Origin: Thermoplasmata archaeon
Lineage (GTDB): Archaea > Thermoplasmatota > Thermoplasmata > UBA10834
Direction of reading: 5' to 3'
DNA length: 64,000 bases
NCBI GenBank assembly: GCA_029864565.1
Contig: JAOTTD010000001.1
Location: forward strand, 208-64,207
The stretch's first letter is position 1. Every line of letters begins with the position of its first letter. Below are positions 13,623 through 50,900 of the stretch, one piece after another. The notes below the pieces were generated by a model. That model was not told where the DNA came from. It was given only the letters and a program-made list of their open reading frames with translations, and searched no databases. Made by a program: the position numbers and the translations under genes.

Positions 13623-13716
13623 AACCGCCCCCACGATACGTGGATTAACATATACTGCCAATTAACCTTCCGCTGAGCTGATAAGAATAGGCACCGCGAG
13701 GGCGCTCTTGATGGAG

Positions 13717-13848: not shown

Positions 13849-13894
13849 GACGAACGATAGCGCGGTACATAAACTTCTGGCGAAACTTATCGAG

Positions 13895-30606: not shown

Positions 30607-30720
30607 TTCGACATGGTCTGTATTCTCATCATGGGAAAAGACAAAGGAGAAGGAGTTTAGCTCGGTGTTAAAACCGCGAAATTCAAATTCGGCCAGTGTT
30701 CGAAGCATAAATCCGGCTCG
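30607..30720 (+). repeat. R1 dispersed intergenic repeat, copy A
   Basis: ...GAGAAGGAGTTTAGCTCGGTGTTAAAACCGCGAAATTCAAATTCGGCCAGTGTTCGAAGCATAAATCCGGCTCG. Collinear with copy C: 55/72 identical with no indel over the right-hand 72 nt, and weaker similarity back to about 30541. Confidence 0.7.
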
Positions 30721-32233: not shown

Positions 32234-32310
32234 ATGAAATAGGGCTGAGAAGGAGTTTAGCTCGGTGCTAGAATCGCGAAATTGAAATCTGGCCAGTCAC
32301 CTGATTTCAA
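32234..32310 (+). repeat. R1 dispersed intergenic repeat, copy B (partial; ends in an 8-bp inverted repeat)
   Basis: ATGAAATAGGGCTGAGAAGGAGTTTAGCTCGGTGCTAGAATCGCGAAATTGAAATCT is 54/57 identical to copy C. It is followed by TTGAAATC-N12-GATTTCAA. Confidence 0.8.
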
Positions 32311-32372: not shown

Positions 32373-34739
32373 TCAGTAGATGCTCCCATCGGACTGATCG
32401 GAGTACAACACACCATCGATCGCTGAGAGTGTGTACCCGGTGCCTCCCTCGCCCGTCCACGTTGCCAGGTTGAAGGTCGCACCGGCCGATATCCGGTACA
32501 CCGAGACCCCTGTGTATGTGAGTGGTGTGTTGGGATCGCAGACATCGGGTGGTCCAGGCGTGCGCAACATATACACGGAGCCAGTCGTGTACCCGGGCAG
32601 GCTGAATACCGTCACATCGCCGTTCTCGTCGACGCCAAGAGCGGTCTTCTCATCGATGCCTATGCCCATCGCCACATCGGACCATCCGTCCTCGACTATG
32701 CGTGCAAGGAAGGTCACGAGCCTGCCCATGCGGTCCCTGGCGACGAAATGGCTGTCGGTTATCTTGTCCTCCATGTGCTCCATGCTGAGGAAGTCGCGCT
32801 CTATGGCCACACTGCGGTTGTATGGGTTGATGAGGGCCGCCTCTGAGTCGATTGTGTCGTACTTGGCTGAGAACGCGAACTCCCCCAGTATGGCGAGGCC
32901 TGCACTAGTGCCCCCTACAGGAGCAGGCTTGTTCGCGACGAAGTGTATGGCGTCCTCGACGGGCGTCCCATTCCACATGCTGACGTAGTCCCACTGATCG
33001 CCACCAGCGATGAAGAGCGCCTCAGCGTTGCGAATTGTGTTCAGGATGAACGAGTCGTAGCAGGCCTCCTGCGACAGGAACACTATCGACTCGACCGAGT
33101 CGACGCCACCGAGCCTGTTGAAGACCCACGGGTTGTAGCCGTCTGAGCCGGAGCAGCGTATGACGACGAAGTCCCCGCCGCCAGATTTGGAAATCATCCA
33201 TCTCATTGCGTCGGCGATGTCATTGCTGCCACCTGCTAGCAACATGCCCTGCGATGTCTGAGTGACCACATCCTCAGGGTTGCCTGTCAGATAGTATTCA
33301 TAGGTCACCGTCTCGGTTGCCACGCCCCAGTAAGTCTCGAGGAACGCCCACCAGCCACTGTTCGGGAACTCGAAGCTCATGTAGGGCACGTGGGTATTTG
33401 CAGTGTAGCTGCTCGTGGTGTACATAGCGTATGCCGGCGGGAACCTGATCCCCATGCCCTCATAGCCGAACCGCTCGCTGTTCTTCGTGGTGCCCATGCC
33501 AATCATGCATGCCTCGTATGCGGAAAGCACTTCGGCACACGCAACCGCAGCAGGATCGTTCTTCTCAAGACTGTCCATGATGTACCCTACGAAAGTGGGC
33601 ATGTCTATCCGGCCAACTGCTGGCGAGCCTGGGGTGATAGCAGCTCGACGAGCTGTGGAGATCACCGAGCTGTACGAGTCGATGTCCTCAGCGAGCGTGT
33701 CCGCCAGGACCAGGACCGCCTGGCCCAGCGCCTCTACCTCGGACATCTTGAACACCGACTGCGTCGTCAGTATCTCCCATTGGAACGGAGCAACGCTGAA
33801 CAGCTCCGTGAACTCATCGACTATGATGAGGCTCAACTCCTCCTCGCTCATCTCAGGACACGCGTTCAGGCTGAGCAGTATCTCATCGTACGAGAAGCCG
33901 CGGTAGCCGATGCTGCTCTCGCTCGCGACCATGTAGTCCGTGTCAAGACCCTTGACACGGTACTCGTACACCGTTTCCATCTGGCCTATGGAACACTCGT
34001 CCATGGCCATGATGTCCACATGGTGGCCATCGAGAGCGGCGATGGCCTCGTGGTGCGAGAGCCAGTCGCCGCCCCATTCATCGTCCCCTGGCGAGCCGTC
34101 CTCCATCGTCTGGTCCCACGCTATTCCATCCACGTCCGAACCGTGATTCCAGAAGAACAAGAGCATGTGCTCAGAAGGATAGTTGGTAGAGCTGTAGTCT
34201 ACGAACTGTTCCAGCGTCTTCTGGTCGCCCATGTTGACCTCTCCGAGGCTCTCGAGCTTCACCAGCTCATGGTCTTCGACGGACAACAGATAGGCGGGCT
34301 CGTAGAGTGTGTCCAGCAGTATGAGCACATTGACATCAGAACTGGAGCCGCCTCTCTTCAGCTCCTCGAGGTCCGTCTCATTGAGGGCGTCCAAGTCGTT
34401 GTCCGCGGTCAGATACACGAGCACGGTCCATTGAGCGATCTCGGACAACACGACCGCGTCTACCGTATCCCTATAATTCTCCGCGGATGCGAACCCTGCG
34501 AAGAGCGAGGCCGCTATCGCCACGGACACAAACACACGGAGTATTCTCCCCGAATCATCAGTCCGAAGTATCCTCTCACCCCCCTTGGTGATTGGGGGGG
34601 CAACAGCATCGTTGGGTTTAGACTTGCCGATACTGACTCCGTGGAACATTAGGCAGCTTCGGAAGGAACCATGTTCAACTTCAATTCCCTGCGATAGAGA
34701 AGACCCACTCAACCAGGCTTGCATGTCGCATCGTGCCAA
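32373..34739 (-). CDS. secreted two-peptidase fusion: clostripain-like C11 cysteine peptidase + S51 (cyanophycinase/dipeptidase-E-like) serine peptidase
   Basis: Signal-like RILRVFVSVAIAASLFAGFASA. C11 blocks WTVLVYLTADNDL, FFWNHGSDVDG (His199) and AMDECSIGQMETVYE (Cys249). The C-terminal 300 aa carry the S51 blocks GGGDFVVI, FIAGGDQ and VGGTSAGLAILG (Ser612). The true start is uncertain (Met31 at 34649, or further downstream). Confidence 0.85.
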   Translation of the reverse strand: MARCDMQAWLSGSSLSQGIEVEHGSFRSCLMFHGVSIGKSKPNDAVAPPITKGGERILRTDDSGRILRVFVSVAIAASLFAGFASAENYRDTVDAVVLSEIAQWTVLVYLTADNDLDALNETDLEELKRGGSSSDVNVLILLDTLYEPAYLLSVEDHELVKLESLGEVNMGDQKTLEQFVDYSSTNYPSEHMLLFFWNHGSDVDGIAWDQTMEDGSPGDDEWGGDWLSHHEAIAALDGHHVDIMAMDECSIGQMETVYEYRVKGLDTDYMVASESSIGYRGFSYDEILLSLNACPEMSEEELSLIIVDEFTELFSVAPFQWEILTTQSVFKMSEVEALGQAVLVLADTLAEDIDSYSSVISTARRAAITPGSPAVGRIDMPTFVGYIMDSLEKNDPAAVACAEVLSAYEACMIGMGTTKNSERFGYEGMGIRFPPAYAMYTTSSYTANTHVPYMSFEFPNSGWWAFLETYWGVATETVTYEYYLTGNPEDVVTQTSQGMLLAGGSNDIADAMRWMISKSGGGDFVVIRCSGSDGYNPWVFNRLGGVDSVESIVFLSQEACYDSFILNTIRNAEALFIAGGDQWDYVSMWNGTPVEDAIHFVANKPAPVGGTSAGLAILGEFAFSAKYDTIDSEAALINPYNRSVAIERDFLSMEHMEDKITDSHFVARDRMGRLVTFLARIVEDGWSDVAMGIGIDEKTALGVDENGDVTVFSLPGYTTGSVYMLRTPGPPDVCDPNTPLTYTGVSVYRISAGATFNLATWTGEGGTGYTLSAIDGVLYSDQSDGSIY

Positions 34740-34763: not shown

Positions 34764-34807
34764 TTGATATAGCGCAACGGAGATTGGCTGTGCAGTGGCT
34801 TGGGAGG
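34764..34807 (+). promoter_or_regulatory. putative TATA-like box and Shine-Dalgarno for the 34814 C11 gene
   Basis: TTGATATA lies at 34764-34771, about 43 nt upstream of the ATG. GGAGG lies at 34803-34807, 6 nt before the ATG at 34814. Pattern only. Confidence 0.3.
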
Positions 34808-34813
34808 ATTGGT

Positions 34814-36010
34814 ATGATTAAGCTTATCCGCGAAAATTCTGTGGGCAAGTCAGTGATTATTCTGGCAGCAGTGATCCTCGCTGTCCCTGGATTCACAGGG
34901 CTATCGATTGCTGTTGATCAGGAGGACAACGGCATTCCGGAGTGGACTATCGCCCTCTTCATAAATGCCGACAACAACCTGGAAATCTGCTACGACGACT
35001 TCACCTATCCGTGGCTGTGTGCCCTCCCAGATAACGACGAGGTAGACATCGTCTCGTGGGTGGACAGGCTGAGCACGACGGGGTATGAAATCATCGAGTT
35101 CTCAGGCGAGGACACGACGATCAGCTACGTGGAGACGGAGCTGGGATTCGGCCTTTCCTCCACACTGAGGGATTTCCTCATATGGACCAACACCGAACAC
35201 CCGTCGGAGAACTTGGCAGTGATAATGTGGGACCACGGCAGCGCGTGGCGATCCTTCAGCAGCGACGATACGGATGGATCGAGGATGTATGGCCCTGACC
35301 TGGACCAGGCGCTGCGGGAAGCCGACATACCACTGGACATATTGGGCTTCGATGCCTGCTCGATGTCAAGCATGGAGAGGCTGTACGAGGTCGGTTACTC
35401 CGGGTATGTCGACATAATGGTGGCCTCGGAGGAGCTTGTGCCCGGCAACGGTTTCCCGTATGATTTGATGTTCACACCATTGATACAGGACTCCACCAGG
35501 GCACCCGTGCAGGTCGCGGGAGACATGGTGATGGGTTGGGAATCGTACTACCACCAATCTCAGAGGGTAAACCTCGCAGCGATAGACGTGAACCAGTTCA
35601 TGGCCGCAATGAATTCCTTCAGCGACTGGACAGACGACATGATAGACGGAATCGACCTGTTTAAGAATGCATACAATCACGCGGCCAAGGATGCATATGC
35701 CGACTGCGGGACTCAGTTCCAGCTAGATATGATCGACCTGGCCGAATTGCTCTATGAGGAATTGGCCAGATGTCCTGCAAGCGATGAGCGGACGGCCCTG
35801 TCGGACTCGACCCTTGGACTGACCGACGCTTTGAAGGGTTCGGTCATAGCCATATCCACATCGGCTGTTACGAGGGACACCCACGGCATGACGATATACT
35901 GGGGATGGTATGGCTCCTGGAACTCGTTCGAGACGCGGTATCTTGAGACGCTCTGGTTCCCCGACGATACAGGTTGGGGAGAGTTCCTTGAGCTGTTCAA
36001 CCTGAAGTAG
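34814..36010 (+). CDS. secreted clostripain-like C11 cysteine peptidase
   Basis: Signal-like KSVIILAAVILAVPGFTGLSIA. WTIALFINADNNLE, VIMWDHGSAWRSF (His) and GFDACSMSSMERLYE (Cys). It ends GWGEFLELFNLK. The ORF track starts at 34784. I prefer the ATG at 34814, which has an SD. Confidence 0.85.
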   Translation: MIKLIRENSVGKSVIILAAVILAVPGFTGLSIAVDQEDNGIPEWTIALFINADNNLEICYDDFTYPWLCALPDNDEVDIVSWVDRLSTTGYEIIEFSGEDTTISYVETELGFGLSSTLRDFLIWTNTEHPSENLAVIMWDHGSAWRSFSSDDTDGSRMYGPDLDQALREADIPLDILGFDACSMSSMERLYEVGYSGYVDIMVASEELVPGNGFPYDLMFTPLIQDSTRAPVQVAGDMVMGWESYYHQSQRVNLAAIDVNQFMAAMNSFSDWTDDMIDGIDLFKNAYNHAAKDAYADCGTQFQLDMIDLAELLYEELARCPASDERTALSDSTLGLTDALKGSVIAISTSAVTRDTHGMTIYWGWYGSWNSFETRYLETLWFPDDTGWGEFLELFNLK

Positions 36011-37999: not shown

Positions 38000-38674
38000 A
38001 TGCACGGATTGAATGTGCTGGCAACATGGAGCGGGGGCAAGGATAGCTGCTTTGCCAGCTACAAGGCAATGCTCGATGGTGCCAATATAACCAACTTGGT
38101 AAACACAATTTCTGAAGAAACCCAAAGAGTGAGATTTCATGGGATTGAAGATACACTAGTTCAGGCACAAGCGGAAGCGATTGGAATCCCTCTCCATCAA
38201 ATAGAAACAAGAGGTGACGATTATGAAAGTGACTTCAAAGAAGGCATAAGAAGTCTGATTCTAGACAGAAACATTCAGGCCATGGTCTTTGGCGATATCC
38301 ACTTAGAGCCTTGTAGAAAATGGGCGGAAAGAATTTGCAGAGAATTAGATATAGACGTCATGGAGCCTCTGTGGAATAGACCCGTAAAAGAAATCTTAAT
38401 AGATTTCATGCGCAGTGGATTTGAAGCATGCATAACCAGCTGTCAAGCAGATTTGGTGAGCGGCAAGTATGTTGGAAGAAGATTAAATGAAGACTTGCTG
38501 GAAGAAATCATTGGACTAGGAATCGATGTTTGTGGAGAGAATGGTGAATTTCACACGGTAGTTACCGATGGCCCCATTTTCAAACGAAGAATAGATGTTC
38601 TTGAATCTCAGAAGGTACTGAGAAACGGCTATTGGTTCTGGGATATCAAGGAATATGAATTAGTCAATAAGTAA
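38000..38674 (+). CDS. PP-loop ATPase of the MJ0570 / diphthine-ammonia ligase (Dph6 N-domain) family
   Basis: NVLATWSGGKDSCFASYKAM (SGGKDS PP-loop), MVFGDI, EPLW and ENGEFHT. Very low G+C (22/60 at 38221-38280). Start taken at the internal ATG 38000. Confidence 0.8.
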   Translation: MHGLNVLATWSGGKDSCFASYKAMLDGANITNLVNTISEETQRVRFHGIEDTLVQAQAEAIGIPLHQIETRGDDYESDFKEGIRSLILDRNIQAMVFGDIHLEPCRKWAERICRELDIDVMEPLWNRPVKEILIDFMRSGFEACITSCQADLVSGKYVGRRLNEDLLEEIIGLGIDVCGENGEFHTVVTDGPIFKRRIDVLESQKVLRNGYWFWDIKEYELVNK

Positions 38675-38815
38675 CCTGGCGGGCTCAAATGCTGCTTCGT
38701 ACCCTGCACATTCCAATCATCGGGATTACATCTTCCCTGCGCAACTATTCATCTTCAAAGCAGTTCGAAAGGCCTATGATGCGACTCGGGCATAGTCGAC
38801 GAGGAGACGATATCG

Positions 38816-39601
38816 TTGCAGATCACGGATTTGAGTGAAGAGAACGAGAGGCTCTACTTCGTCTGTCTCGAGGATTGGTCAGATGAAATGAAGGACGCAG
38901 GAGACCACAAGGAACGATGGTACCTAAGAATGAAAGAGAGTGGCCTCAGAGTCAAACTAGCTGTTGATGACAATGGTGTCGTTGGCGGGATGATCCAGTA
39001 CATCCCAGTAGAGTTCTCAAACGTTCGCGGTGAAGACCTCTATTTCATCAACTGCATCTGGGTACACGGGTACAAGCAGGGAAGGGGCGATTTCCGCAAG
39101 AAGGGAATGGGAAAGGCACTTCTCAAAGCGGCGGAAGATGACGCTAGAAAACTCGGGGCGAAGGGGATGGCTGCGTGGGGCGCCAGTTTGCCCGTGTGGA
39201 TGAGAGCGTCGTGGTTCAAGAAGCAAGGATACGAGAAAGCGGATAAGGATGGCATGGCTGTGCTCCTATGGAAACCCTTCACCCAATATGCTAAACCGCC
39301 ACATTGGATCGAGCAGAAGAAGAGGCCGCAGGCAACTTCGGGGAAGGTGACTGTGACTGCGTTCATAAACGGATGGTGCCCTGCCCAGAACCTGGTATAT
39401 GAAAGGGCTAAACGAATTGCTGCTGAGCTGGGTGACAAGGTGGTGTTCAACGGTGTCGACACTTCTGAGAGGAGTACGTTCCTTGAATGGGGCATAAATG
39501 ACGGCCTGTTCATAGATGACAAGGTTGTGAGAACCGGGCCCCCACCAACTTACGAGAAGTTGCGGAGGCTGATCGCAAAAAGGCTCAGGAGACTGAAGTA
39601 G
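38816..39601 (+). CDS. GNAT acetyltransferase fused to a thioredoxin-fold C-terminal domain
   Basis: GGMIQYIP...INCIWVHGYKQGRGDFRKKGMGKALLKAAEDDARKLGAKGM (GNAT), then VTVTAFINGWCPAQNLVYERAKRIAAELGDKVVFNGVD (Trx-like beta-alpha-beta). TTG start. Confidence 0.65.
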   Translation: MQITDLSEENERLYFVCLEDWSDEMKDAGDHKERWYLRMKESGLRVKLAVDDNGVVGGMIQYIPVEFSNVRGEDLYFINCIWVHGYKQGRGDFRKKGMGKALLKAAEDDARKLGAKGMAAWGASLPVWMRASWFKKQGYEKADKDGMAVLLWKPFTQYAKPPHWIEQKKRPQATSGKVTVTAFINGWCPAQNLVYERAKRIAAELGDKVVFNGVDTSERSTFLEWGINDGLFIDDKVVRTGPPPTYEKLRRLIAKRLRRLK

Positions 39602-39673
39602 GACTCTCACGTCGAGAATCCTGGCACCCTTGGGAACGCTTGACAGAACGAACTGGCAGACTCTCAAAGGATT

Positions 39674-39970
39674 CTATGGCTTGAACCTGGCCAGAAAGTC
39701 ATCAATGGGGATTGCCGATAGCGTGTTCGTCTCGAGGGTTCCGCGGGAACCCAGGTCCACCATGACCTTTGAGATTGTGAGATTGTCCTGTGCTTCCAGG
39801 ATGGTGAGGAAATCGTATTCGCCGAGGAGTGCGAACTGGTGCATAACTCGTGCGCCCATCTTCGAAATCTCCTCGTTCACTTCCTTCACGCGTTCCGGCT
39901 TGGCCTTGAGTGTCTTTCGTCCTTCATCTGTCAGTTTCGACAATACGACGTACACCGCCACTTCAACCAC
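39674..39970 (-). CDS. GYD domain protein
   Basis: 98 aa. YVVLSKLTDEGRKTLKAKPERVKEV...LLGEYDFLTILEAQDNLTISKVMVDLGSRG is typical of the GYD family. Confidence 0.8.
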   Translation of the reverse strand: MVEVAVYVVLSKLTDEGRKTLKAKPERVKEVNEEISKMGARVMHQFALLGEYDFLTILEAQDNLTISKVMVDLGSRGTLETNTLSAIPIDDFLARFKP

Positions 39971-40148
39971 CTACACGACCGCATGAAAATCGTCCCTCTT
40001 ATCTCTTTTGCCGATTAGCGGTGAGCCGTCGATCCGGGTATGCAAGTCGCCCAAAGTGAGAAAATGCATCAAGGGCTGGAAATAGGAAAAGGGTTTGCCT
40101 GATCCGGGGCTTCTGATCGAGAGCAGCACACTAAGAACTGGCGTCTGT

Positions 40149-40562
40149 TTATGGTATCTGGACTGTGTCGATCACGTGGATTACGCCATTGCTGGCATCA
40201 ATGTCCGTCTTGATGACCTTGGCAGATCCAACCCTGACACCTTGCGAGAGGTCGACCCTGAGATCCTTTCCCTGGACGGTTCTCAGTGAAGCCTGTTTTG
40301 TAACGGCCTCAGCGTCCATCTTCCCAGAAACCAGGTGATACTTCAGAATCGCACTCAGCTTCTCCCTGTCCTTCAGGAGACCTTCAACTGTCCCCGATGG
40401 GAGCTTGGCGAACGCTTCATCCGTCGGGGCGAACACTGTGAAAGGTCCGCCCTTGCTCAAAGTATCTACCAGACCAGCCTCTGTTGCGGCTTTCAAGAGG
40501 GTCTTGAACGATCCCGCTTCCGATGCGACTTCGACTATGTTCTTCATCCATTCCTCCTCCAC
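40149..40562 (-). CDS. fasciclin (FAS1) domain protein
   Basis: [48 protein letters not shown]...LKYHLVSG...[10 protein letters not shown] (H1, H2 and YH motifs). No clear signal peptide. Confidence 0.85.
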
Positions 40563-40976
40563 TCACTATGTGAGCCACTTCGAATGGGCACTTTTGTTGT
40601 TATAGAATTGGACGTACAGGTGCGGTATCATGCGCCGATTTGCATAATGAAAGGAGATGATCTTTCGAGATTCACATTTGTTCGCTCTCGAGACGTGACA
40701 ATAATTCAGTACTATGTATCCAAACCGCGAGGAATTTCCTACGCTTCGAATTTGATGCATGCTAGTGTGCTGCAAAACCGCATAGACCGAGCTCCAGGCT
40801 CCCCCTTCGCATTGTGGATGGGCGCAAGGCTTATCTTGGGGCCGTTGCTCTTCTTCAGCAGCCGGGTCATCCTCACGTATGCTGATCGTGGAACAAGTCG
40901 TGGGCGCCTCAGGAACGAGCGCCGCCGTAGCGGCCTGCCATGGGCGCTGAGCCCGGGCCAGATGTCGATGTATGGG

Positions 40977-41861
40977 TCATGCGAGCAACCAACCAGCTGT
41001 CATTGCAGTCATCACAGCACCCATAGTGATCGCTCCAAGAATGGGCTTTGGAGTGCGCATGAAAACAAATCCAGAGTAAATCCCAAGCGGCAATGTCGCC
41101 GCCGTGGCAACGCTGACCTCTAATGGAAACAAGTCTCCCGTGAACGCGAAGACGTAGACATAGGTCGAGGCAATCACGACCATGTGCAACAACCTTGTTC
41201 GATCGCCCAGTCTAACGACTAAAGTGAGCTTACCAGATTGCCTGTCCGCCATCATGTCGGCCCAATGAATGCCCAAGAGGTTTGCCATCACGATTAAGAA
41301 AACTGGCACACACCATAAGACAGCTCTCGCAGGTATTTCACTAGTCTGAGAGGCGAGCGCGAGGAGGGGCATAAGGAACCCGCCGAGAATGGCATTGTCA
41401 AGCTCCCCCCAGCCCCGCCTTATGAGCCGCATCGGAGACATAGAATATATCCAGCCTCCGGCTAGTCCCGACACAACGACCAATCCCGTGACGGGATAAA
41501 GAATTCCTGAAGTGATGCCTACGGCCGTTAGGATCATGGCGGACCCAAATGAGACCACAGCTGCATTCAACGCCAGCGATCTAGGAACCTGCTTCGATAT
41601 GAGAACACCACTGCCTCCTGTAACTATGGTTCTTGCTGTAAGTGAGTCTGTGTCCACATCTGCATACTCGTCGGCATAGTGTGCCATCATTATCGCCGAG
41701 ATCAAAATGACAAAGCCGAGAAAGGCAGCGGCCAAATCGACCGCTCCCATTTCGTACTGTGCCATGGCCAAACCAAGGGCGTATGAAATGATGCCGGCAA
41801 CAATAATCAGAGGCCTCGCCATCTTCACTAACGCAATCGACGTTGAATAGAGCATAGCCAT
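40977..41861 (-). CDS. UbiA-family prenyltransferase
   Basis: Eight or nine hydrophobic helices. Asp-rich motif HYADEYADVDTD and a second D-rich region HWADMMADRQ. Confidence 0.8.
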   Translation of the reverse strand: MAMLYSTSIALVKMARPLIIVAGIISYALGLAMAQYEMGAVDLAAAFLGFVILISAIMMAHYADEYADVDTDSLTARTIVTGGSGVLISKQVPRSLALNAAVVSFGSAMILTAVGITSGILYPVTGLVVVSGLAGGWIYSMSPMRLIRRGWGELDNAILGGFLMPLLALASQTSEIPARAVLWCVPVFLIVMANLLGIHWADMMADRQSGKLTLVVRLGDRTRLLHMVVIASTYVYVFAFTGDLFPLEVSVATAATLPLGIYSGFVFMRTPKPILGAITMGAVMTAMTAGWLLA

Positions 41862-41864
41862 AGC

Positions 41865-42629
41865 TCATCTCCTAGAATAGTAGTAGTCGAATATCTGGTC
41901 AAGATCCCCGCCGAGTGCGTACCAAACGCGGCACTTCAGGAATTTAACAGTATGACGGATATTGCCGTGCTTCCGAAAAGCATCGGCGCTTGTGATTACA
42001 GTCTCTCGAAGAAGTCTCACCTTCCCGTGCTTCCTCATGCATTTGCCAAGTCTGACGTCTTCCATGATCGGCACATCAATAGCCTGAAGGCATCCCCTCA
42101 GGATTCCTGTTCGCAAGAATATCCCCCTGTCGCCCCAGACATCTCCCAGGACCCACGAAAAGAGGCTGCCCAATGGCAAAAGAAACTGAAGATAAGCGCT
42201 TCTTTTGTCGAACGACCTGGAGAATGCGCCACCGGCGGTCTTCGGATCCGACATGGCCTTGATTATGGCAGAATCCCAATCATTCGGCAGCGTGGTATCA
42301 GAGTGCAGGAGTAGAGATATGTCTCCTTTAGCGATCTTTGCGCCCTCTATGAACGCATATCCGCGTCCGATCCGATTGGAAACTACGACTATCTCGCTCG
42401 GTCCTTCGGGAGAGATCTTACCCACCAGTTCCGGGCTATTGATGACGATGATCAGCTCGGCGATGACATTAGAAGCATGGACAGACTCTCTGATCTGCAG
42501 AAGCCTGGAAATGCCCTCATGAACGGGCACTATGACCGATATGATTGTTCTGCCTTCATTCGGCGAACCTTTCTCAACCATATTCGCAATCATTTCCTCG
42601 ATCATCTCAACAAAGCCTTGTTCTCGCAA
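41865..42629 (-). CDS. GT2-like glycosyltransferase (rSAM/selenodomain-associated transferase 2 type, recalled as TIGR04283)
   Basis: ISVIVPVHEG...LIIVINSP...GRGYAFIEGAKIAKGDISLLLHSDTTLP, a GT-A fold with a DxD-like HSD. Confidence 0.75.
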   Translation of the reverse strand: MREQGFVEMIEEMIANMVEKGSPNEGRTIISVIVPVHEGISRLLQIRESVHASNVIAELIIVINSPELVGKISPEGPSEIVVVSNRIGRGYAFIEGAKIAKGDISLLLHSDTTLPNDWDSAIIKAMSDPKTAGGAFSRSFDKRSAYLQFLLPLGSLFSWVLGDVWGDRGIFLRTGILRGCLQAIDVPIMEDVRLGKCMRKHGKVRLLRETVITSADAFRKHGNIRHTVKFLKCRVWYALGGDLDQIFDYYYSRR

Positions 42630-43315
42630 ATGAAGCGCATTGTTCTTTGTGCGAATGAAGACTGCTCGCAGAGATCCTGGAATAGCGCGCTAAGATCATC
42701 CATTGTGTCGACATCGCTCCATTCTTGAAGTATGTGAATTTTCAGGCCTGCCCCTTCCAACTTTGATAAAGTGTCCTCGAACACCTGCGAAGTACTCCAA
42801 TGGATCCCCTCAAAAGCATCTGGAAGAAATGCGCGGCGACTGAATCCTATGAGGTAGTATCCTCCATCGGTCGAAGGGCCAATCACTGCATCGTGACCAT
42901 CGAGCGCGGAAGAGGACTCGACCAGAATCCTGACGGGCAGATCCGGCGAGTCGCTTCCAATCGCCACGACCTTTTCGAACTCCTTATTGAATGCATCGCT
43001 GAAGGCGTTCCTAAGCCTTTGTCCCATGTCTCGTCCGCGCTGAGGGATATAGGTCACGTTTGTTCCAAGCCAACTCTGAAATCCTCCCAGCTTGGTGCTC
43101 GGATAGTAGCAGATGGAAAACGGAATTCCTGATGCCTTGAGAGTCTCAATCGAATCCAGTACGAAGCAACCGTAGAGATCTATGACCTTGTCCTCTGGCA
43201 GGTTCCGTGCAAGTCTTTGCTTGACAACCCCTTTCTGCGGGTATTTCGTGAGGAGAAGAATGCATGCGTTTGATGCAGTCCCGCAATGCTCAGGATTCTT
43301 ATTTCTATCGGACAA
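42602..43315 (-). CDS. DUF2064 / CofC-like nucleotidyltransferase-fold protein (rSAM/selenodomain-associated transferase 1 type, recalled as TIGR04282)
   Basis: ACILLLTKYPQKGVVKQRLA...VAIGSDSPDLP...GPSTDGGYYLIG...WSDVDTMDDL. Confidence 0.75.
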   Translation of the reverse strand: MSDRNKNPEHCGTASNACILLLTKYPQKGVVKQRLARNLPEDKVIDLYGCFVLDSIETLKASGIPFSICYYPSTKLGGFQSWLGTNVTYIPQRGRDMGQRLRNAFSDAFNKEFEKVVAIGSDSPDLPVRILVESSSALDGHDAVIGPSTDGGYYLIGFSRRAFLPDAFEGIHWSTSQVFEDTLSKLEGAGLKIHILQEWSDVDTMDDLSALFQDLCEQSSFAQRTMRFICENKALLR

Positions 43316-44261
43316 GTGCTCCCCCGCAAGACGACCCTTGGCCCGCGGTGCAACCGAAGCAGTGGCTCTCCGTTACGATTCTCCTGCGGGAATATTGCTT
43401 TGGGTCGCAATCACGAATGTGCTGAGGTACAGAGTCATCGACCGTCAATCCAAGACCGAGGTTGAAGTCGCAGTCGTAGACTTTTCCGTCCCAACCAACA
43501 TTAATCTGGCTTCTGCACATCAGTCCATCGATGGTTTCTTTGTTGAAGGCCTTCCGTAGCAGCCAATCATACCTCTGGAAATGGCCCTTTTGGCGCAACA
43601 TCTCGTTGAAGCGGCCGACTGGCATATTAGCAATCGTGATAAGGCTATTGAAGTCAATGCCGTATTCCCTGAAGAGTATCTCCCGGTACTCCTGCTCCAA
43701 GGCAGACTGCTCTGCTGGCAGGAAATCACCCTCTGGGTTGAATACCAAATCCAGCTGAAGTTCGAGAACCCTTCCGTAGCCAGCTTTGTTGAGTCTCTTC
43801 AGAGCTTCGATGCTGCGATTGAAGACGCCATCTCCGCGCACAGCGTCGACCTCCTTTCTTAGATAGCAGGGAAGAGACGCTACGAGCTTCACTCGATTCT
43901 GCTTGAAGAAATCAATCATCGACTTCATTCTTGGCTCAATAAGAATTGTCAGATTTGTCCTGATCTGGACTCTGAAGCCTTCTGCGGACATCGCCTTGAC
44001 GAACCTCTTCAGATTAGGATTCATCTCGGGGGCTCCTCCGGTAATGTCCACAAGCTTCGGTCTGATGTCACGCGCAGCAGTTATCACGAGCTGCATGGTG
44101 TTCCAATCCATCAGCTCCCTCCTCTCGGGACCCGCCTCGAGATGACAGTGTTTGCAGCGATTGTTGCAGAGGAATCCAACATTCACCTGAAGCGTATCCA
44201 CTCGCTCCGAAAACAGCTCAGTTCCAACAGCATTCTTTATCCTCTTCTCAAAGTCATTCAT
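43305..44261 (-). CDS. radical SAM / Cys-rich C-terminal domain protein (ArsS-like, recalled as TIGR04167)
   Basis: CNNRCKHC radical-SAM cluster motif, ITGGAPEMNP, and a C-terminal DUF3641-like HCFGCTAGQGSSCGGAL. Confidence 0.85.
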   Translation of the reverse strand: MNDFEKRIKNAVGTELFSERVDTLQVNVGFLCNNRCKHCHLEAGPERRELMDWNTMQLVITAARDIRPKLVDITGGAPEMNPNLKRFVKAMSAEGFRVQIRTNLTILIEPRMKSMIDFFKQNRVKLVASLPCYLRKEVDAVRGDGVFNRSIEALKRLNKAGYGRVLELQLDLVFNPEGDFLPAEQSALEQEYREILFREYGIDFNSLITIANMPVGRFNEMLRQKGHFQRYDWLLRKAFNKETIDGLMCRSQINVGWDGKVYDCDFNLGLGLTVDDSVPQHIRDCDPKQYSRRRIVTESHCFGCTAGQGSSCGGALVR

Positions 44262-44402
44262 GTTCCCGCCATTTCCCGGTGCCTGAATTGCGATAATGGC
44301 CTTTAATGACTCTTCCTACCGGAGAATCTTCCGTCTTGTCTATGCGGCAGTAGTGTTCAGAGTCGAATGCCTAGTATGACAGGCCAGTCATGTCGCAATG
44401 CG

Positions 44403-44478
44403 AGGCCAATCAGGCCGAATTGATGTCGGAGCTAAACCCCTTTCTTCTGATTTCAATCAGGGGTAAGTCCGAGCTTCC
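44403..44478 (-). repeat. R1 dispersed intergenic repeat, copy E (about 1.5 tandem diverged units)
   Basis: GGCCGAATTGATGTCGGAGCTAAACCCCTTTCTTC is followed by TGATTTCAATCAGGGGTAAGTCCGAGCTTCC. The second part matches copy D (CTGATTTCAATCATGGGTGAATCGAACTCGG). Confidence 0.5.
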
Positions 44479-44514
44479 TATCGCAATACGGGAAGACTCG
44501 GCTTACTTCGGCGG

Positions 44515-45108
44515 CTACTTATTGACCACGGGAGCTTCGTATGGCTCCAATTCTAGGGGACGTGCTCTTGAGGAGACTGCTTTGGAATGAAGTAGAACAG
44601 CCGATGCTTGCAGGATGCATGCGATTGCACATAGGTAGAATCCTCCTCCAGGACCACCGGTGTATACAACGTCCCCATCGGTTGTGCTCGAAAAGAATCC
44701 CGACACATACTGCGAAGGGGCCGCGCTAGGGAAAGCCAACGTGAAGTACACAAGCATCCCGACGCCAATCGTAACCGGTGCCATTCCAGATGCTATGTCC
44801 CTGATTGCAGATCCTTTTGTGTCTGACATGACCCAATACGCGTAGTGGAGGGATGCGAGAAACCACAGGACGGCGAAGAACTTCAGCATTTCCATTACTT
44901 CCCCTACGGGGTTCCAATCGCGGTAACTCTCGGCTGTTCCGTATAGTGGGTCAAAATGATTCAGATAATACTCAGACACGATTATGTGTCCATTTGAGAT
45001 GTAGTACCACGACATCCAAAATGACCCCATGACAAAGAAGACTGCGATAAATGTCAGAAGAACGCTGCCCATAGAATAGCCTGGCAGCCTCGCCATTGTA
45101 TCCCTCAT
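44515..45108 (-). CDS. hypothetical four-helix membrane protein
   Basis: 197 aa with helices VLLTFIAVFFVMGSFWMSWYY, FFAVLWFLASLHYAYWV, VTIGVGMLVYFTLAF and FYLCAIACILQASAVLL. Confidence 0.6.
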   Translation of the reverse strand: MRDTMARLPGYSMGSVLLTFIAVFFVMGSFWMSWYYISNGHIIVSEYYLNHFDPLYGTAESYRDWNPVGEVMEMLKFFAVLWFLASLHYAYWVMSDTKGSAIRDIASGMAPVTIGVGMLVYFTLAFPSAAPSQYVSGFFSSTTDGDVVYTGGPGGGFYLCAIACILQASAVLLHSKAVSSRARPLELEPYEAPVVNK

Positions 45109-45353
45109 ATCCTACATCAGATACTATACTCCTCCCACCTTATTGACTTTTCTCACGTGGAATTGCCGGGGTTAGATCCTTTTCTCTTTTCTTGTCAATA
45201 TCAGATAGGTTAGCAAGGTCTCAATTCCCTCCGATAGAACCGAACCATCCGACCGGGGTTAGAGATCGCACCAAGAGAAAGAGCCATGGGAGGCGAAAGA
45301 AACCCTTAAGCCATGCCAGGCAATTCCGGCCATGGGCACGGGGGAACTCGGGT

Positions 45354-46670
45354 ATGTCAATCAGTGACTCTTCGAAGCGTCTAATGTGTTTGATGGTTTC
45401 TGCGGCGTTCGCCGTCCCGCTCTTCGCGAGCCTGGCGGCAGGAGAGGGTGAAGACGGTGCTGCAGACTGGACACTGGCGATATACCTCGACTCCGATAAC
45501 GATCTCGACTTCTGGGCGCAGGAAGACGTGAACCAGATGCTAAGCATCGGCTCCACAGAATCTGTCAACATTATCCTTCTGTGGGATACGGAGATAGGCC
45601 CTGCGCATGTCTATCACGTGCTCAAAGGAGAGCTTCGAGAGCAGGAAGACTGCGGGCTGCACGGGGTCGAGACGAATATGGGTGACTCGGAGACACTCAG
45701 AGAGTTTGTCACGTACGCCACCTCGAATTTCGAATCGGAGTACTTCCTGCTCGTTCTCTGGAACCACGGGGACGACTCCCTGGGAGTATGCTTCGACTAC
45801 GACACCGGAGCCGACGATAGCATAGACTACCTCACCCACCAAGAGGTGGTGTCAGCCCTAACCGACTACGAAGTAGACGTGCTCCTGTTTGCTGCCTGTA
45901 TTCTCGCAATGGTTGAGGTTGCCTACGAATACTACGCATCTGGAGCGGACATTGACTATGTCGTAGCCAGTGAGGGGTACGACCCGATGCCTGGCTTCCC
46001 GTGGGACACCATTCTGACGAAACTCGTTGCCCAGCCTGGCATGGCTCCACTTACGCTCGCCACGACCTTGGTTGACGAACACGTCGACTACTACAACGTT
46101 AAACACCGGGGAGAGGAGGGACCACACCAAGACGGGCAACTGGAGGATGACCCAGGAACTGCCTGGTGGTACATGTCATACGAGCACGTGACCTTCTCCG
46201 TGATAGAACTCTCCGGAATGGGAGAAGTCGTATGCGACATCAAGGACATGGCGTCTGCGCTAATCCTCGAGATGGATGAGTATGCAAGTATTGTGTCATA
46301 CGCGAGAGCGCAGGCAATCCTGCCCTGGTCCCAGAACGGCTGGGAAAGAACTGTCGACCTCCCGACGCTTGTGGAGGCTATTCGCGATCGAAGCCTCGGT
46401 GCTGTCATGTCTGCGTGCGAGAATGTGATGATGAGTCTGTCGGATGCGGTTGTCTACTATCGCAGTATAGACGAACGGTCGGGATACGAAGGTATGGGCG
46501 TACTCTTCCCCAGATCGCTCGCGATGTATGAGAATTGCCAGGTGAACGTAGGCCATTGGCCCATGCCACAATGGTCCGAGTATTACGGGCAGATGCTCTT
46601 CGTGGATGAGATTTGGCTTGACTTCCTTGACGCATATTGGAGCGCCGCGCCTTCTGGTCCATCTTCATGA
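45354..46670 (+). CDS. secreted clostripain-like C11 cysteine peptidase
   Basis: Signal-like RLMCLMVSAAFAVPLFASLAAG. WTLAIYLDSDNDLD, LVLWNHGDDSLG (His) and LLFAACILAMVEVAYE (Cys). It ends IWLDFLDAYWSAAPSGPSS. The ORF track starts at 45192 (TTG). I prefer the ATG at 45354. Confidence 0.85.
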   Translation: MSISDSSKRLMCLMVSAAFAVPLFASLAAGEGEDGAADWTLAIYLDSDNDLDFWAQEDVNQMLSIGSTESVNIILLWDTEIGPAHVYHVLKGELREQEDCGLHGVETNMGDSETLREFVTYATSNFESEYFLLVLWNHGDDSLGVCFDYDTGADDSIDYLTHQEVVSALTDYEVDVLLFAACILAMVEVAYEYYASGADIDYVVASEGYDPMPGFPWDTILTKLVAQPGMAPLTLATTLVDEHVDYYNVKHRGEEGPHQDGQLEDDPGTAWWYMSYEHVTFSVIELSGMGEVVCDIKDMASALILEMDEYASIVSYARAQAILPWSQNGWERTVDLPTLVEAIRDRSLGAVMSACENVMMSLSDAVVYYRSIDERSGYEGMGVLFPRSLAMYENCQVNVGHWPMPQWSEYYGQMLFVDEIWLDFLDAYWSAAPSGPSS

Positions 46671-46736
46671 GTAAACGGTGGGTCAGAACCGCTGGCGAGA
46701 GGAGTGGGACAAAGCCATAGGAGCGGAGAGAAGCCC

Positions 46737-47624
46737 TTAGGCCGAAGGCGATTCAAGGATGGGGGAATGGCGACGGTCAAGAGGGAACCATCTCTGAGTG
46801 TGATTCTCGCTCAGTTCCCACAATCTTCTGGCCAGTTCAGGGTCGTTGGACTCTTTAGAGGTCTTTGTCACCCTCCTCTTTCTGAAGCATTCTCCCGAGA
46901 TGTTCATCACGTTCTGCGAGCTAGCCAAGTAGACAGAGGTGTCTGCACCTTTCTCGGGACTGGCTCCGAACACCCTGAAGAAAGTCCTGCCAAACGCTCC
47001 TGCGTTTCTCGACAGGCCCGTGGCGACAAGCCCCGGCATCAGACAATTGGCGGTGACGCCTGTGCCTGTCAGTCTCCTTGAAAGCTCCTTGATGAAGAGT
47101 ATGTTCGCCAGCTTTGATTGCCTGTAGGCCTTCATCGCGTTGAACTTAGTTTTGAATTCAACGTCGTCAAAATTGATGGTCCCTCCATGAAGCCCCGAGG
47201 AAACACTGATGATCCTTGCTGGGCTGCTCCTCTCCATCAAGTCAAGGAGAAGGTTCGTCATAAGGAATGGCGCAAGATGGTTTACCGCGAATGTATTCTC
47301 TATTCCGTCCTTCGAAACCTTCCTTTCTCTCTCCCACGTCCCTGCGTTGTTGATCAGAATGTGCAACCTGTCGTATCTCTCCCGGAAGTTGGCGCAACAA
47401 TCATGCACAGAAGACAGAGATGATAGGTCGCATTCGAGGGAATCAATCATTTCGTTCTTGGAAACAGCTGTTATTTGGCCTCTTGTGGCCTTTCCCTTCT
47501 CGGCGCTCCTCGCCGTGAACACAACAGTTGCTCCCATCTTCCCTAACGCTAACGCTGTTTCCCTTCCGATGCCAGATGTGGCCCCAGTTATCAGGCATAT
47601 CTTGCCGCTCATCATACCTGTCAT
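46737..47624 (-). CDS. short-chain dehydrogenase/reductase (retinol-dehydrogenase-like SDR)
   Basis: ITGATSGIGRETA, NNAG and the catalytic YRQSK. Confidence 0.9.
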   Translation of the reverse strand: MTGMMSGKICLITGATSGIGRETALALGKMGATVVFTARSAEKGKATRGQITAVSKNEMIDSLECDLSSLSSVHDCCANFRERYDRLHILINNAGTWERERKVSKDGIENTFAVNHLAPFLMTNLLLDLMERSSPARIISVSSGLHGGTINFDDVEFKTKFNAMKAYRQSKLANILFIKELSRRLTGTGVTANCLMPGLVATGLSRNAGAFGRTFFRVFGASPEKGADTSVYLASSQNVMNISGECFRKRRVTKTSKESNDPELARRLWELSENHTQRWFPLDRRHSPILESPSA

Positions 47625-47832
47625 GCCATCATCGTATGTTATGACTGCAATTGTTCTTTTGCCCGATTTAGATAGGACTCGCTTCTCGCGAAGAACAAGC
47701 TCAAATCGCTTCCAGCTGAGAGAAGGCCGCGGGGAGGAGCCAAAAGATGACCCAGTAATTCAGGCTTGAATGTCGCACAAACTGAATTCCCCACTCCACG
47801 AGGAAGAGCGATGAAATCACCTACATCCGAGT

Positions 47833-47893
47833 GCAAGAGCGCCCTGATTGAAGACGAGCCATCCGTCCCGTTTCATCCAGGGTTCCCCCTGCA
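47833..47893 (+). repeat. R2 short repeat, copy X3
   Basis: GCAAGAGCGCCCTGATTGAAGACGAGCCATCCGTCCCGTTTCATCCAGGGTTCCCCCTGC aligns with 62786-62848 (GCATGTCGTACCCTCCAACCGGAGAAGAGCCGGCCATCTCGTTTCATCCACGGTTCCCTGC). Confidence 0.55.
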
Positions 47894-47966
47894 GCTCGGC
47901 CATTCTTGCCGTACGCGAATGCTGATAATCGCCTATAATTTGACGATGTTTGATATCGTCAGCCCT

Positions 47967-50900
47967 TCAGGTCGGCGGCGCCTTCCTCCTGCGGACTGCG
48001 ATGGCTACTGCTATAAGGGTGATCGCGGCCAAGGCCGCGAGTGCAATCAATAGCCACGGCATCTCCGAACCTGGGAGACCCTCGTCCGGCTGACCAGCTA
48101 TGCCGAAGAGGGACAACCCTGACACGTTGGCCCACAGATACCCCTCGTAGGACATGCCGAAGAGTTCCACATCCGTCGTGTTCACACCGGTGGTATCGAC
48201 GATGTCAGAAAGTCTTACCCATTCGCCGTCTGCCGACAGGAGGAAGAGCTGCAGCGAGCTCTCATTCAGATCCTCAGGGTCGCCCGCGTCGCCGTCGCCA
48301 TTGACGTCGAGGTCGGAGGCCGTGTAGTATATCTTAATCAGCGAGCCCGAAACGACGGCCGACAGGTCCGGATCGAGTGACTGGAACTCTATCCGAACAT
48401 ACTTATCCATCATGAGTTCGCCAGGCGCCAGGGCGTCAGACCCGGAGAGACTATCCGAGACCTCGTCGTCATGGAGCTTGTCCACTCTCACGCTGAACGT
48501 GGCCATGTTGTCGAGCTTCGTCCACACGAACGTGTCGGTGGCCCTCATGGTATCCATCTGGTCGAGCATGAAGCAGGCCCTCGGGTTCAGGTAGTCCACC
48601 ATCACGCTCCTCTCCGATACGGTCATGCGCATGCTCTTCAGGACGCCCAGTACCCGGATCCAGTCGGTGTCGTAGACGTGCGAGAGCATCACTACCGTCT
48701 GCGTCTCGTTCCACAGCCCGTACCTGACCGCCATCCGACCGTATTCCGAGTCGAGCATCTGAACAAGGACTTCACCAGAGTCCTCTAGTATTGAGTATAT
48801 GATTCCGCCCGCGGTGCCTTCGCCCGCTTCGGGGTGGCCAACGAGGACGATGTACCTCGCATCGGCATGTTCCGCCAGCAACGTATCGGGACCTACGGTT
48901 CTGACATCTGCGTTCTGCGTAAGATGCAGCGCGAACTCGGCCGAGCCTTCGATGTCGTCGTAGCAGAGTACGATCTCGTCCTCAAGCTCGAGCAGGTAGT
49001 CGAGGTCGAGTGAGTCGGGCACGCCATCGCCGTCGGAGTCGGTGCTCCTCGGATTGAGACCCAACTCCAGCTCTCTAGAGTCGTTAACCCCGTCGCCGTC
49101 CGTGTCCTCCGACAGGGGGCTCATCATTGACGATATCTCGAACCCGTCCGAGAGCTTGTCTCCGTCAGAGTCTCCGGAGGTCGCGTTGGTGTTGAACAGA
49201 ACCTCTTGGCCGTCATCGATGCCGTCAGCGTCGGTGTCTGCAGAGTTGGGATTTGCCCCGAGCTCGTACTCCTGACCGTCGAACATGGAATCCCCGTCGG
49301 TGTCTGGATTCTTGGGATCAGAGCCGAAGCCGATCTCCTTGAAGTCATCCAGGCCGTCCTGGTCGGTGTCAGGTGTGTTCGGGTCAAGGTCCAGGATGAA
49401 CTCCTCGTAATCTGTCAGCCCTTCGCCGTCGGTGTCCTGAACCTTCGGGTCACTTTCGAACTCGACCTCGGCCCCGTCCCCGAGCCCATCGCCGTCCGTG
49501 TCCCAGTGTGTCAAGTTGGTCCCGAGCTGCCACTCCTCCATGTCCTGAAGCCCGTCCTCGTCCGGGTCAATCGAACGCGGATCGGACTGCATAGCAGCCT
49601 CGTCGGGGTCGGGAACGCCGTCGGCATCTGTGTCGGGCGTCATCGGCTCGCTGCTGACCGTGAGCGAGGAAGTAGACTCCTCTGTCGTGACAGTAATAGA
49701 CCATCCGCTTTCCTCTTGGACATCGGTCAGGCCGTCGCTGTCAGCGTCGAGGAACACATAGTCGGGCTCTGCCTGAATCAGCTCCATGTCGTGAGAGCAT
49801 CTGGTCACGTTCCCCCAGCTCGCTAGGTAGATGCGATTCCCGCCGTCCACTGTAATGCCGTTGGCTGCGATGTAGTCCTCTTCAAGGCTGCACATCCATC
49901 TGCCGTCCGATGTCCATTTCTGTATCCGGCCCGCGAAATCCCCGCTACCATCAAGCGTCAGTATGTCGCCATTGACGTCGACCCTGATGCTCCTGACTCG
50001 GTCGAGAAAACCGTCCTGGGTGCCTGTCTCGCCCCACATCGTCACGAACGTGCCGTCGGGTTCGAACTTCTGAATCCTGTCGTTGTTCGTGTCTGAGATG
50101 TAGACATACCCATCCTCATCGACATCGATGTCTGCCGCGTACCATCCCAGGTCGAACTGCCCAGGTCCGGTGCCGGATTCTCCCCAAAGAGCCTCCTGCG
50201 ATATCATTTCAGTTCCATTCATCAAGAACTTGCGAACACGATCGTAGGAGTCCAGAACGTACAGATAGTACGTGTTGGGGTCCGGACCGTTGGGGTCCAG
50301 AGTCATCCCGAATATTGAGACGTCGATGCCCACGAGAACGCTGCCAGGTATCTGACTCAAGAGCGTTCCGTTTGTTGCATAGACAAGGACATCCGCGCCC
50401 GTGCATACGACCAGGAGTGTCTGGCGCTCGCCGGACAAGTTCAGGTAGATGCATTCCAACTCATCCGGCCTGTAGTCGGGGACCGGAAATCCTCCGACCT
50501 CAGTCCCGTTCTGATCGAAGACCACGACGTTGGTGGAGTTGTCTGTGTACACAAATCCGTCCTCGTCTACTGCGACGCAATTCGGGGAGTATCCCACAGC
50601 CTCGGGCACGAAGGAGGAGCTGAAATCGATATGCGTAAGATAGTAGTCCGTGATCTCGTCCTGAATGCCGTCCCCATCAGTGTCGGCACTCCTCGGGTTC
50701 AGTAGACAGTAGTACTCCTCGAAGTCGCCGATTCCGTCTCCGTCGGTGTCGCTCAGATGGGGGTCGGAATTGACCAGCCAGTAGTAGGTGTCGTTCCTGT
50801 ACGTGAAATTCACCGCCCATCCGTGATACTCGAAGAAGTCCGTGAGGCCGTCCCCGTCCGAATCAGGGCTGGAGAAGTTGTATCCTCTGGCGTGTTCGAA

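Follow-up and report, generated by a model that had tools for sequence, protein, structure and literature searches.

A 64-kb stretch of DNA from a Thermoplasmata archaeon (contig JAOTTD010000001.1, positions 208 to 64,207; hereafter the window, meaning the whole stretch that was analyzed) carries four co-directional open reading frames (ORFs) at 40977-44261, head to tail on the minus strand in the order g1-g2-g3-g4. Coordinates are positions in the window unless another locus is named. The first gene, g1 (43305-44261), encodes an ArsS-family radical S-adenosylmethionine (SAM) enzyme of 318 amino acids (aa). It is followed by g2 (42602-43315), which starts at a TTG codon and encodes a 237-aa DUF2064/TIGR04282 "CofC-like" transferase of the glycosyltransferase A (GT-A) type; by g3 (41865-42605), which encodes a 246-aa, divergent glycosyltransferase-like protein of the glycosyltransferase family 2 (GT2) type with a GT-A fold; and by g4 (40977-41861), which encodes a 294-aa polytopic prenyltransferase of the UbiA superfamily. 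The domain families named for these genes in an earlier note on this DNA (Radical_SAM with DUF3641, DUF2064, Glycos_transf_2 and UbiA) were all matched by Pfam.

The four genes are tightly packed. The TTG start of g2 lies inside the end of g1 (an 11-nt overlap), and 3 nt separate the g3 stop from the g4 ATG, which is preceded at a distance of 8 nt by a Shine-Dalgarno-like AGGAGA within the end of g3. Both junctions are as the earlier note had them; its third, a 28-nt overlap of g2 and g3, arose because the longest-ORF rule was used. The longest ORF for g3 spans 41865-42629 (254 aa from a TTG at 42629), while an in-frame ATG at 42605 gives the 246-aa protein and a 4-nt ATGA overlap with the g2 stop. 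This is the length called in every relative, and the extra N-terminal residues of the longest ORF are not conserved. Upstream of g1, a conserved 5' leader of the cassette (44262-44315, minus strand) is a candidate archaeal promoter region; similarity to two related loci, L005 and L015 (82% identity), stops at 44315. Within it, an AGAAGAG-N2-ATTAA block ~40-55 nt upstream of the g1 ATG, directly preceded by GGCGGGAAC, is conserved in a four-way alignment and is a candidate promoter of g1. Scanning for sigma-70 promoters and intrinsic terminators returned nothing above chance, the sigma-70 model not being applicable to archaea. At the other end, alignment revealed a short conserved 3' tail (40958-40976, minus strand), with blastn borders against L005 and L015 at 40958 and 40962.

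The characterized ArsS is cyanobacterial, and to our knowledge only the cyanobacterial member of the TIGR04167 family has been characterized so far. Against this NCBIfam model, g1 scored 418.9 bits (equivalog cutoff of 300), with residues 18-316 aligned to positions 4-303 of 303, and Pfam identified Radical_SAM and DUF3641 domains (PF12345 at 177 bits). The protein carries CNNRCKHC and the tail HCFGCTAGQGSSCGGAL, the motif and Cys-rich tail that had been pointed out in the earlier note; the CX3CX2C cysteines are C32, C36 and C39, and the C-terminal DUF3641 Cys-rich domain ends in a CFGC...SSC tail. All nine cysteines of g1 (including C32, C36, C39, C301, C304 and C312) are invariant across 12 bacterial and archaeal ArsS homologues, and mean column identity in this 12-sequence alignment is 66%. 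The family is extensive and spans many taxa, with at least 7999 homologues at E<=1e-20 (7999 of 8000 scored candidates). NCBIfam names it arsenosugar biosynthesis radical SAM "(seleno)protein ArsS", and it is listed as a predicted selenoprotein family (PMC9312934), which is consistent with the remark in the earlier note that some homologues contain selenocysteine. The earlier note also mentions the link of the family to arsenosugar synthesis: characterized ArsS adenosylates dimethylarsenite (DMAs(III)) to give 5'-deoxy-5'-dimethylarsinoyl-adenosine (PMC13598754). Equivalog-level similarity suggests that g1 may catalyze the same adenosylation.

The two middle genes encode GT-A-fold proteins. 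g2 matched TIGR04282 at 185.6 bits (cutoff 134) and DUF2064 (PF09837) at 111 bits, and among solved structures it matched PDB 3CGX, a "putative nucleotide-diphospho-sugar transferase" (E=2e-49). The assignment of g3 is looser. Its best NCBIfam match is TIGR04283, at 117.7 bits over the full model length and below the cutoff of 182, and its Pfam match to Glycos_transf_2 reached 32.7 bits. We therefore describe g3 as TIGR04283-like, i.e., as a divergent branch and not as a member. The earlier note was right on the gene families and on the layout of the operon. Close relatives of g3 form only 13 clusters among 5.8 billion proteins. The acidic, DXD-type motif LHSDT is invariant, and GRG and GDR are conserved. 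An AlphaFold2 (AF2) model of g3 (predicted local distance difference test score, pLDDT, of 86) has a GT-A fold and matches GT2 structures including ArnC, dolichyl-phosphate mannose synthase (DPMS) and hyaluronan synthase. The g3 profile and model resemble polyprenyl-phosphate GT2 enzymes (DPMS and ArnC), among others.

The fourth gene was correctly recognized in the earlier note as a UbiA-type prenyltransferase. It matched PF01040 at 68.2 bits (gathering threshold 34.2) and keeps both Asp-rich motifs (ADEYADVDTD and HWADxxAD) together with the subfamily motifs GGSG and YSMPP. Its AF2 model (pLDDT 94.7) shows a UbiA fold of the nine-helix type, with template modeling (TM) scores of 0.7-0.78 to UbiA-family structures. 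The top structural matches are digeranylgeranylglyceryl phosphate (DGGGP) synthase (7BPU and 6M31, top in Foldseek), AfUbiA, UBIAD1 and ApUbiA, and the nearest solved relative by sequence is UBIAD1 (8DJK, E=7.8e-10). With the Asp-rich motifs kept and the fold modeled confidently, g4 is predicted to be catalytically competent.

Which UbiA enzyme g4 might be is constrained by several rejected candidates. Methanogens such as Methanobacterium are not known to have menaquinone, and the UbiA subfamily of g4 is present in them. We rejected an identity as MenA because of this distribution and because the scores fall far under the cutoffs (the best MenA model gave 43.1 bits; NCBIfam cutoffs are 102-555). 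The product name "octaprenyltransferase" that JGI attaches to the UbiA gene is likewise unsupported, since all MenA scores are under cutoff. DGGGP synthase was also rejected by sequence: no NCBIfam model of this enzyme matched at E<=0.01, and the likeness is structural only, at 13% identity. Judged by its profile scores, g4 is a UbiA enzyme outside every named NCBIfam subfamily. With its closest relatives by sequence, the UBIAD1/MenA branch, and with its top structural match, DGGGP synthase, it shares the UbiA fold and both Asp-rich Mg2+/diphosphate motifs; unlike them, it has the subfamily-specific GGSG and YSMPP motifs.

The earlier note had raised the possibility that the linkage of UbiA to the other three genes is a misassembly or is unique to this contig. 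A chimeric contig would place UbiA next to the trio by accident; this explanation has practically no probability left. A unitig from the source run (41009-42376) crosses the g4/g3 junction with zero differences and an even depth of ~24. Contigs from two other sediment metagenome studies, at ~92-93% identity, cross the gene junctions (one spans 41243-43527), and the same gene order is found across ENA, JGI, NCBI and Logan assemblies. Order and spacing are also the same in five independent assemblies (L005, L006, L007, L009 and L015). Together, the unitig, the contigs from other studies and the independent assemblies rule out both misassembly and a contig-unique linkage.

Comparison of these loci revealed that the cassette occurs as a sharply bounded unit in unrelated genomic contexts. 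Similarity between the window and L005/L015 is confined to 40958/40962-44315 (blastn). L005 and L015 are 97.5% identical over 3416 nt; this stretch begins ~70 nt before g1, ends 60 nt beyond g4 and gives way on both sides to sequence without similarity by blastn. The nearest named cassette is L015, from the Thermoplasmata metagenome-assembled genome SG225.bin4. Synonymous divergence (dS) between the window and L005 is alike for the four genes (0.55-0.62), and the ratio of nonsynonymous to synonymous divergence (dN/dS) is 0.12-0.29; the equal dS and low dN/dS show that the four genes share one history and are all under purifying selection. In L005 (7262-7940 and 2735-3205), a truncated tyrosine-integrase gene and a tRNA-Val(TAC) come directly after UbiA, and an ArsR-family helix-turn-helix gene lies 660 nt upstream of the cassette. 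We considered the latter as a link to arsenic and rejected it as too generic to count. In L009, which is 92.6% identical to the window, a fasciclin gene lies downstream of the cassette as it does in the window; the interval between the cassette and a giant surface protein contains two MttB-family genes in L009 and three different genes in the window.

In L005 and L015, short repeated sequences lie near the cassette borders. A ~60-nt conserved intergenic repeat (...ACTGGCCAGATTTGAATTTCGCGATTCTAGCACCGAGCTAAACTCCTTCTC...) occurs in the window at 32236-32297 and 30648-30719 (minus strand) and in L005 at 3621-3704, the L005 copy lying ~100 nt upstream of the cassette block. In L015, the tail GCACCGAGCTAAAC, related to the ACTGGCCAGATTTGAATTTCGCGATTCTAGCACCGAGCTAAACTCCTTCTC repeat, ends the element just past the cassette. 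The repeat could be a promoter or leader, or a recombination site. Also just past the L015 cassette, the stretch 10968-11114 resembles window 47745-47875 and 34682-34730 (intergenic or gene-start positions; 71-86% identity) and is a second short dispersed element near a cassette border. A flavodoxin gene stands beside the cassette in L015.

The four-gene order is not limited to close relatives of the window. A second archaeal operon lineage (L010/L011) has the same order, with ArsS 63% and UbiA 47% identical to the window proteins, and the g3-g4 spacing is kept at 3-14 nt across the clade down to this 47% UbiA identity. In L010 (11385-12681), UbiA is followed on its own strand by a gene for a DUF2769 protein and one for an EamA-family transporter, which may export the cassette product. 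g3 is also followed by UbiA in L008 and L100. In a Methanomassiliicoccaceae locus (L029), a flavodoxin-ArsS-DUF2064-GT2 array, with flavodoxin directly upstream of ArsS, is convergent with UbiA. In a neighbor-joining tree, the operon-linked UbiA proteins form one clade and L029 falls in a separate Methanomassiliicoccaceae clade. Of the L029 features at 10789-11604 and 13380-13883 (both minus strand), the GT2 gene loses similarity after "PIFEG", which looks like a frameshift and is possibly a long-read assembly error, and the flavodoxin gene is the one directly upstream of ArsS.

These observations lead to a reading that we favor tentatively and hold at somewhat less than even confidence as a whole, co-transcription of the four genes included: the locus may be one biosynthetic cassette in which the widespread ArsS/TIGR04282/TIGR04283 "arsenosugar" trio is joined by a membrane prenyltransferase to make an isoprenoid-tailed arsenoriboside lipid. 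Every chemical step, and the arsenic substrate, is deduced from the protein families. ArsS would cleave SAM reductively and add the 5'-deoxyadenosyl radical onto dimethylarsenite, yielding 5'-deoxy-5'-dimethylarsinoyl-adenosine. g2 (nucleotidyl- or NDP-sugar transferase-like) and g3 (GT2-like) may then process this compound and transfer a 5-deoxy-5-dimethylarsinoyl-ribosyl unit to an acceptor. The UbiA enzyme would draw on a prenyl diphosphate donor (in an archaeon, plausibly geranylgeranyl diphosphate) and either O-prenylate the riboside or its aglycone (as do DGGGP synthase and chlorophyll synthase) or build the isoprenoid acceptor. The outcome would be an arsenoriboside that carries an isoprenoid tail and is anchored in the membrane, i.e., an archaeal counterpart of algal phytyl arsenosugars and arsenosugar phospholipids. 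The earlier note had suggested a prenylated or lipid-linked output derived from a 5'-deoxyadenosyl unit or a sugar; the gene linkage behind that suggestion is now stronger, and the product itself is still conjecture.

The cassette can be compared with known systems at three levels. Its g1 resembles the ArsS of the ArsM/ArsS arsenosugar pathway in its equivalog-level match to TIGR04167, its CX3CX2C motif and its full Cys-rich DUF3641 tail; unlike that pathway, the cassette belongs to an archaeal and anaerobic host, contains UbiA in the operon and has no arsM within the 64 kb. Its first three genes hold, in order, the families of the NCBIfam trio TIGR04167, TIGR04282 (glyco_like_cofC) and TIGR04283 (glyco_like_mftF), an arrangement also found in Bathyarchaeota (L014) and at many metagenome loci, except that g3 represents a rare divergent branch (26-28% identity only to the L014 GT2 protein) and that a UbiA gene is appended as a fourth. 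The proposed product resembles AsSugPhytol, the phytyl or "isoprenoyl" 2-O-methyl arsenoribosides of green algae, plankton and sediments, in combining an ArsS-type 5-dimethylarsinoyl-ribose with an isoprenoid chain (PMC11009773, PMC7345539). AsSugPhytol is known as a compound only, reported from eukaryotic algae and environmental samples, and the cassette lacks a 2-O-methyltransferase.

What the pair formed by g2 and g3 does elsewhere was approached through its neighbors. Across 90 loci, the recurrent partners of the pair were ArsS (24), UbiA (11), VTT/DedA (7), C_GCAxxG_C_C (6), LPG_synthase_TM (4) and rhodanese (4). The recurrence of membrane-lipid-type proteins (VTT/DedA and LPG_synthase_TM) among these partners provides circumstantial support for a lipid-associated product. 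Bacterial DUF2064-GT2 pairs with VTT/DedA, LPG_synthase_TM, rhodanese and C_GCAxxG_C_C genes occur at the metagenome loci L127, L129, L152, L158, L117, L149, L150 and L170, a conserved neighborhood for which we found no description in the literature searched. In a variant cluster without ArsS (L111, 3405-5298; L112, 3-401), the DUF2064-GT2 pair follows a different radical SAM/SPASM gene and a Methyltransf_11 gene.

Several results weigh against the arsenoriboside cassette. The structural models of g3 and g4 do not reveal an acceptor: the Foldseek ranking of g3 mixes ArnC, DPMS, hyaluronan synthase and soluble GT2 enzymes, and that of g4 mixes DGGGP synthase, UBIAD1 and ApUbiA, so that no acceptor can be read from either. 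The score of g3 below the TIGR04283 cutoff belongs here too, and the NCBI name "arsenosugar biosynthesis glycosyltransferase" comes from a hypothetical-equivalog model. When all non-overlapping window ORFs of 90 aa or longer were scanned with Pfam, none matched an ArsM-like methyltransferase or Acr3, ArsB, ArsA, ArsC, ArsD or ArsR; these negatives, which bear out the earlier note, rest on Pfam, and some window ORFs match no Pfam family. The 64-kb window also has no obvious nucleosidase or phosphorylase, and within 8 kb of any UbiA-linked locus there is no arsM, no ars resistance gene and no obvious nucleosidase or phosphorylase. Finally, the link between UbiA and the trio is rare. A survey centered on UbiA used a subfamily profile and covered 80 species-level loci, 52 of which have at least 3 kb on both sides; trio genes were nearby in only two (L015 and L029). 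A survey centered on g3 covered 22 metagenome loci whose g3 is at least 39% identical, ~15 of them assessable, and found UbiA downstream in only two of the latter, several complete trios having no UbiA. Such surveys had been proposed by the earlier note, and the linkage it described is recurrent beyond this contig at the low frequencies just given. The UbiA subfamily is found in Thermoplasmata, Methanofastidiosia, Methanobacteriaceae, Methanomassiliicoccales, Methanomicrobiales, Halobacteria, Bathyarchaeia and Chloroflexi; with the trio link limited to one clade, it must do something else elsewhere (e.g., in Methanobacterium, haloarchaea and Chloroflexi).

The rarity of the link raises the possibility that UbiA is a passenger, co-transcribed with the trio in this clade and acting in an unrelated membrane pathway, that of the UbiA subfamily in general, with the adjacency an inherited synteny that hitch-hikes with a moving cassette. 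This would account for the 78 of 80 UbiA loci without the trio nearby, for the preponderance of close-g3 trios without UbiA (the Bathyarchaeota trio L014, in g1-g2-g3 order, likewise lacks it) and for the single clade formed by the operon-linked UbiA proteins, since a tight operon may stem from one fusion event. Neighbor clustering also found no universal partner gene for the UbiA subfamily, the minor associations being a short-chain dehydrogenase/reductase (SDR) fusion in some Chloroflexi and a ~237-aa gene in Methanobacteriaceae. A passenger fits less well with the g3-g4 spacing of 3-14 nt that persists as UbiA identity falls to 47%, or with a block that, in unrelated contexts, ends 60 nt after UbiA and not before it. 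Equal dS and similar purifying selection in all four genes, and the second adjacency in another gene orientation in Methanomassiliicoccaceae, speak against it as well, as does a comparison of 91 UbiA loci, in which the trio recurs more often than any other neighborhood. We regard a passenger UbiA as unlikely, if well within reason. The link between UbiA and the trio is real and recurrent and is confined to a minority clade, and a functional link is made more likely by the bounded four-gene unit, the co-divergence of its genes, the persistence to 47% identity and the second orientation.

A functional link does not by itself require arsenic. HpnH, in the HpnH/HpnG adenosylhopane route of bacteriohopanepolyol synthesis, adds a 5'-deoxyadenosyl unit to an isoprenoid C=C bond, and the route ends in a ribosyl-isoprenoid lipid. 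By analogy, the ArsS-type enzyme could adenosylate another soft nucleophile, or a C=C bond of the prenylated UbiA product, to give an arsenic-free 5'-deoxyribosyl isoprenoid lipid or cofactor; both routes would use a radical SAM enzyme to add a 5'-deoxyadenosyl unit on the way to a ribosyl-isoprenoid lipid. HpnH (rSAM adenosyl-hopene transferase, TIGR03470) is indeed among the weak NCBIfam matches of g1, at 28 bits, and belongs to another family; the cassette radical SAM enzyme is of the ArsS type and its isoprenoid enzyme is a UbiA transferase. The missing arsM and ars genes, in the window and near every linked locus, favor a non-arsenic product, and so does the breadth of TIGR04167 (at least 7999 matches), little of which is characterized and which was originally described as a radical SAM family with selenoprotein members and without known function (PMC9312934). 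On the other side, g1 scores 119 bits over the ArsS equivalog cutoff, and the family is uniform (66% mean column identity, invariant cysteines) with or without UbiA, which argues for the same small substrate everywhere. Since UbiA was added to the trio in one clade, the radical SAM enzyme is unlikely to depend on UbiA for its substrate. DMAs and arsM are common in anoxic sediments, the arsM carriers among sediment microbes including Thermoplasmata's phylum, Thermoplasmatota (PMC10060404); as arsM is widespread in sediment communities, the substrate could come from elsewhere in the genome or the community. We consider an arsenic-free product of the cassette rather improbable.

On the arsenoriboside reading, the cassette would bear on a gap in arsenolipid biosynthesis. 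In arsenosugar synthesis, only the ArsS step has an assigned enzyme. In the literature searched, we found no genes that convert dimethylarsinoyl-adenosine to arsenosugars, arsenosugar phospholipids or phytyl arsenosugars, nor any that would assign such chemistry to archaea; no paper characterizing an ArsS or arsenosugar pathway in archaea was found, in agreement with the earlier note, and none that connects a UbiA enzyme or prenyltransferase to ArsS or arsenosugars. Isoprenoid-linked arsenoribosides are present in plankton and sediments (PMC11009773, PMC7345539), and our search returned no report of genes for their biosynthesis. It is an outside prospect that these four genes are the first to be identified for making isoprenoid-linked arsenoribosides (AsSugPhytol- or archaeol-type), with UbiA as the missing arsenosugar prenyltransferase and with uncultured Thermoplasmata of anoxic sediments, and not just algae, as a source of the lipid-soluble arsenic of sediments. 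What is new is a clade-specific UbiA add-on to the known ArsS trio, in archaea. Because its four small genes can be co-expressed, the cassette is a directly testable candidate for an arsenolipid pathway, and it offers a way into the roles of two uncharacterized GT-A proteins, DUF2064/TIGR04282 and TIGR04283. Should arsenic prove not to be involved, the cassette would still point toward an isoprenoid lipid or cofactor with a 5'-deoxyribosyl group in sediment archaea that are abundant.

The window is archaeal in gene content: it encodes fibrillarin, Kae1 and a protein of the Diphthami_syn_2 (diphthamide synthase) family. Its housekeeping RecJ-like protein falls into one 90%-identity cluster with a protein listed at NCBI under "Thermoplasmata archaeon", and the sequencing runs that hold the sequence are sediment metagenomes. 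An Rfam search of the window returned only a tRNA-Val, located elsewhere than the cassette. The lower G+C content that the earlier note ascribed to the operon was found (0.511 in the cassette; 0.558 in the window), and we rejected it as a mark of the operon because the dip spans ~10 kb (38-48 kb). The zone 38001-48000, which contains the cassette, has a G+C content of 0.515 vs 0.566 outside it, and its gene content differs from that of the ~93%-identical L009; it looks like a variable region.

Other features of the window lie outside the cassette. A full-length heliorhodopsin is encoded at 18448-19188 (plus strand; PF18761 at 310 bits). Four genes belong to the clostripain family (Peptidase_C11), at 32373-34739 (minus strand), 34784-36010, 45192-46670 and 61492-62652 (all plus strand), and one of them is fused to Peptidase_S51; four such genes in 64 kb suggest a protein-degrading lifestyle. 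A 2033-aa protein encoded at 47967-54068 (minus strand) combines bacterial TSP3 repeats with segments of the fascin/FRG1-like and NHL types and carries a membrane anchor at its C terminus, and it has an 87%-identical homologue in L009.

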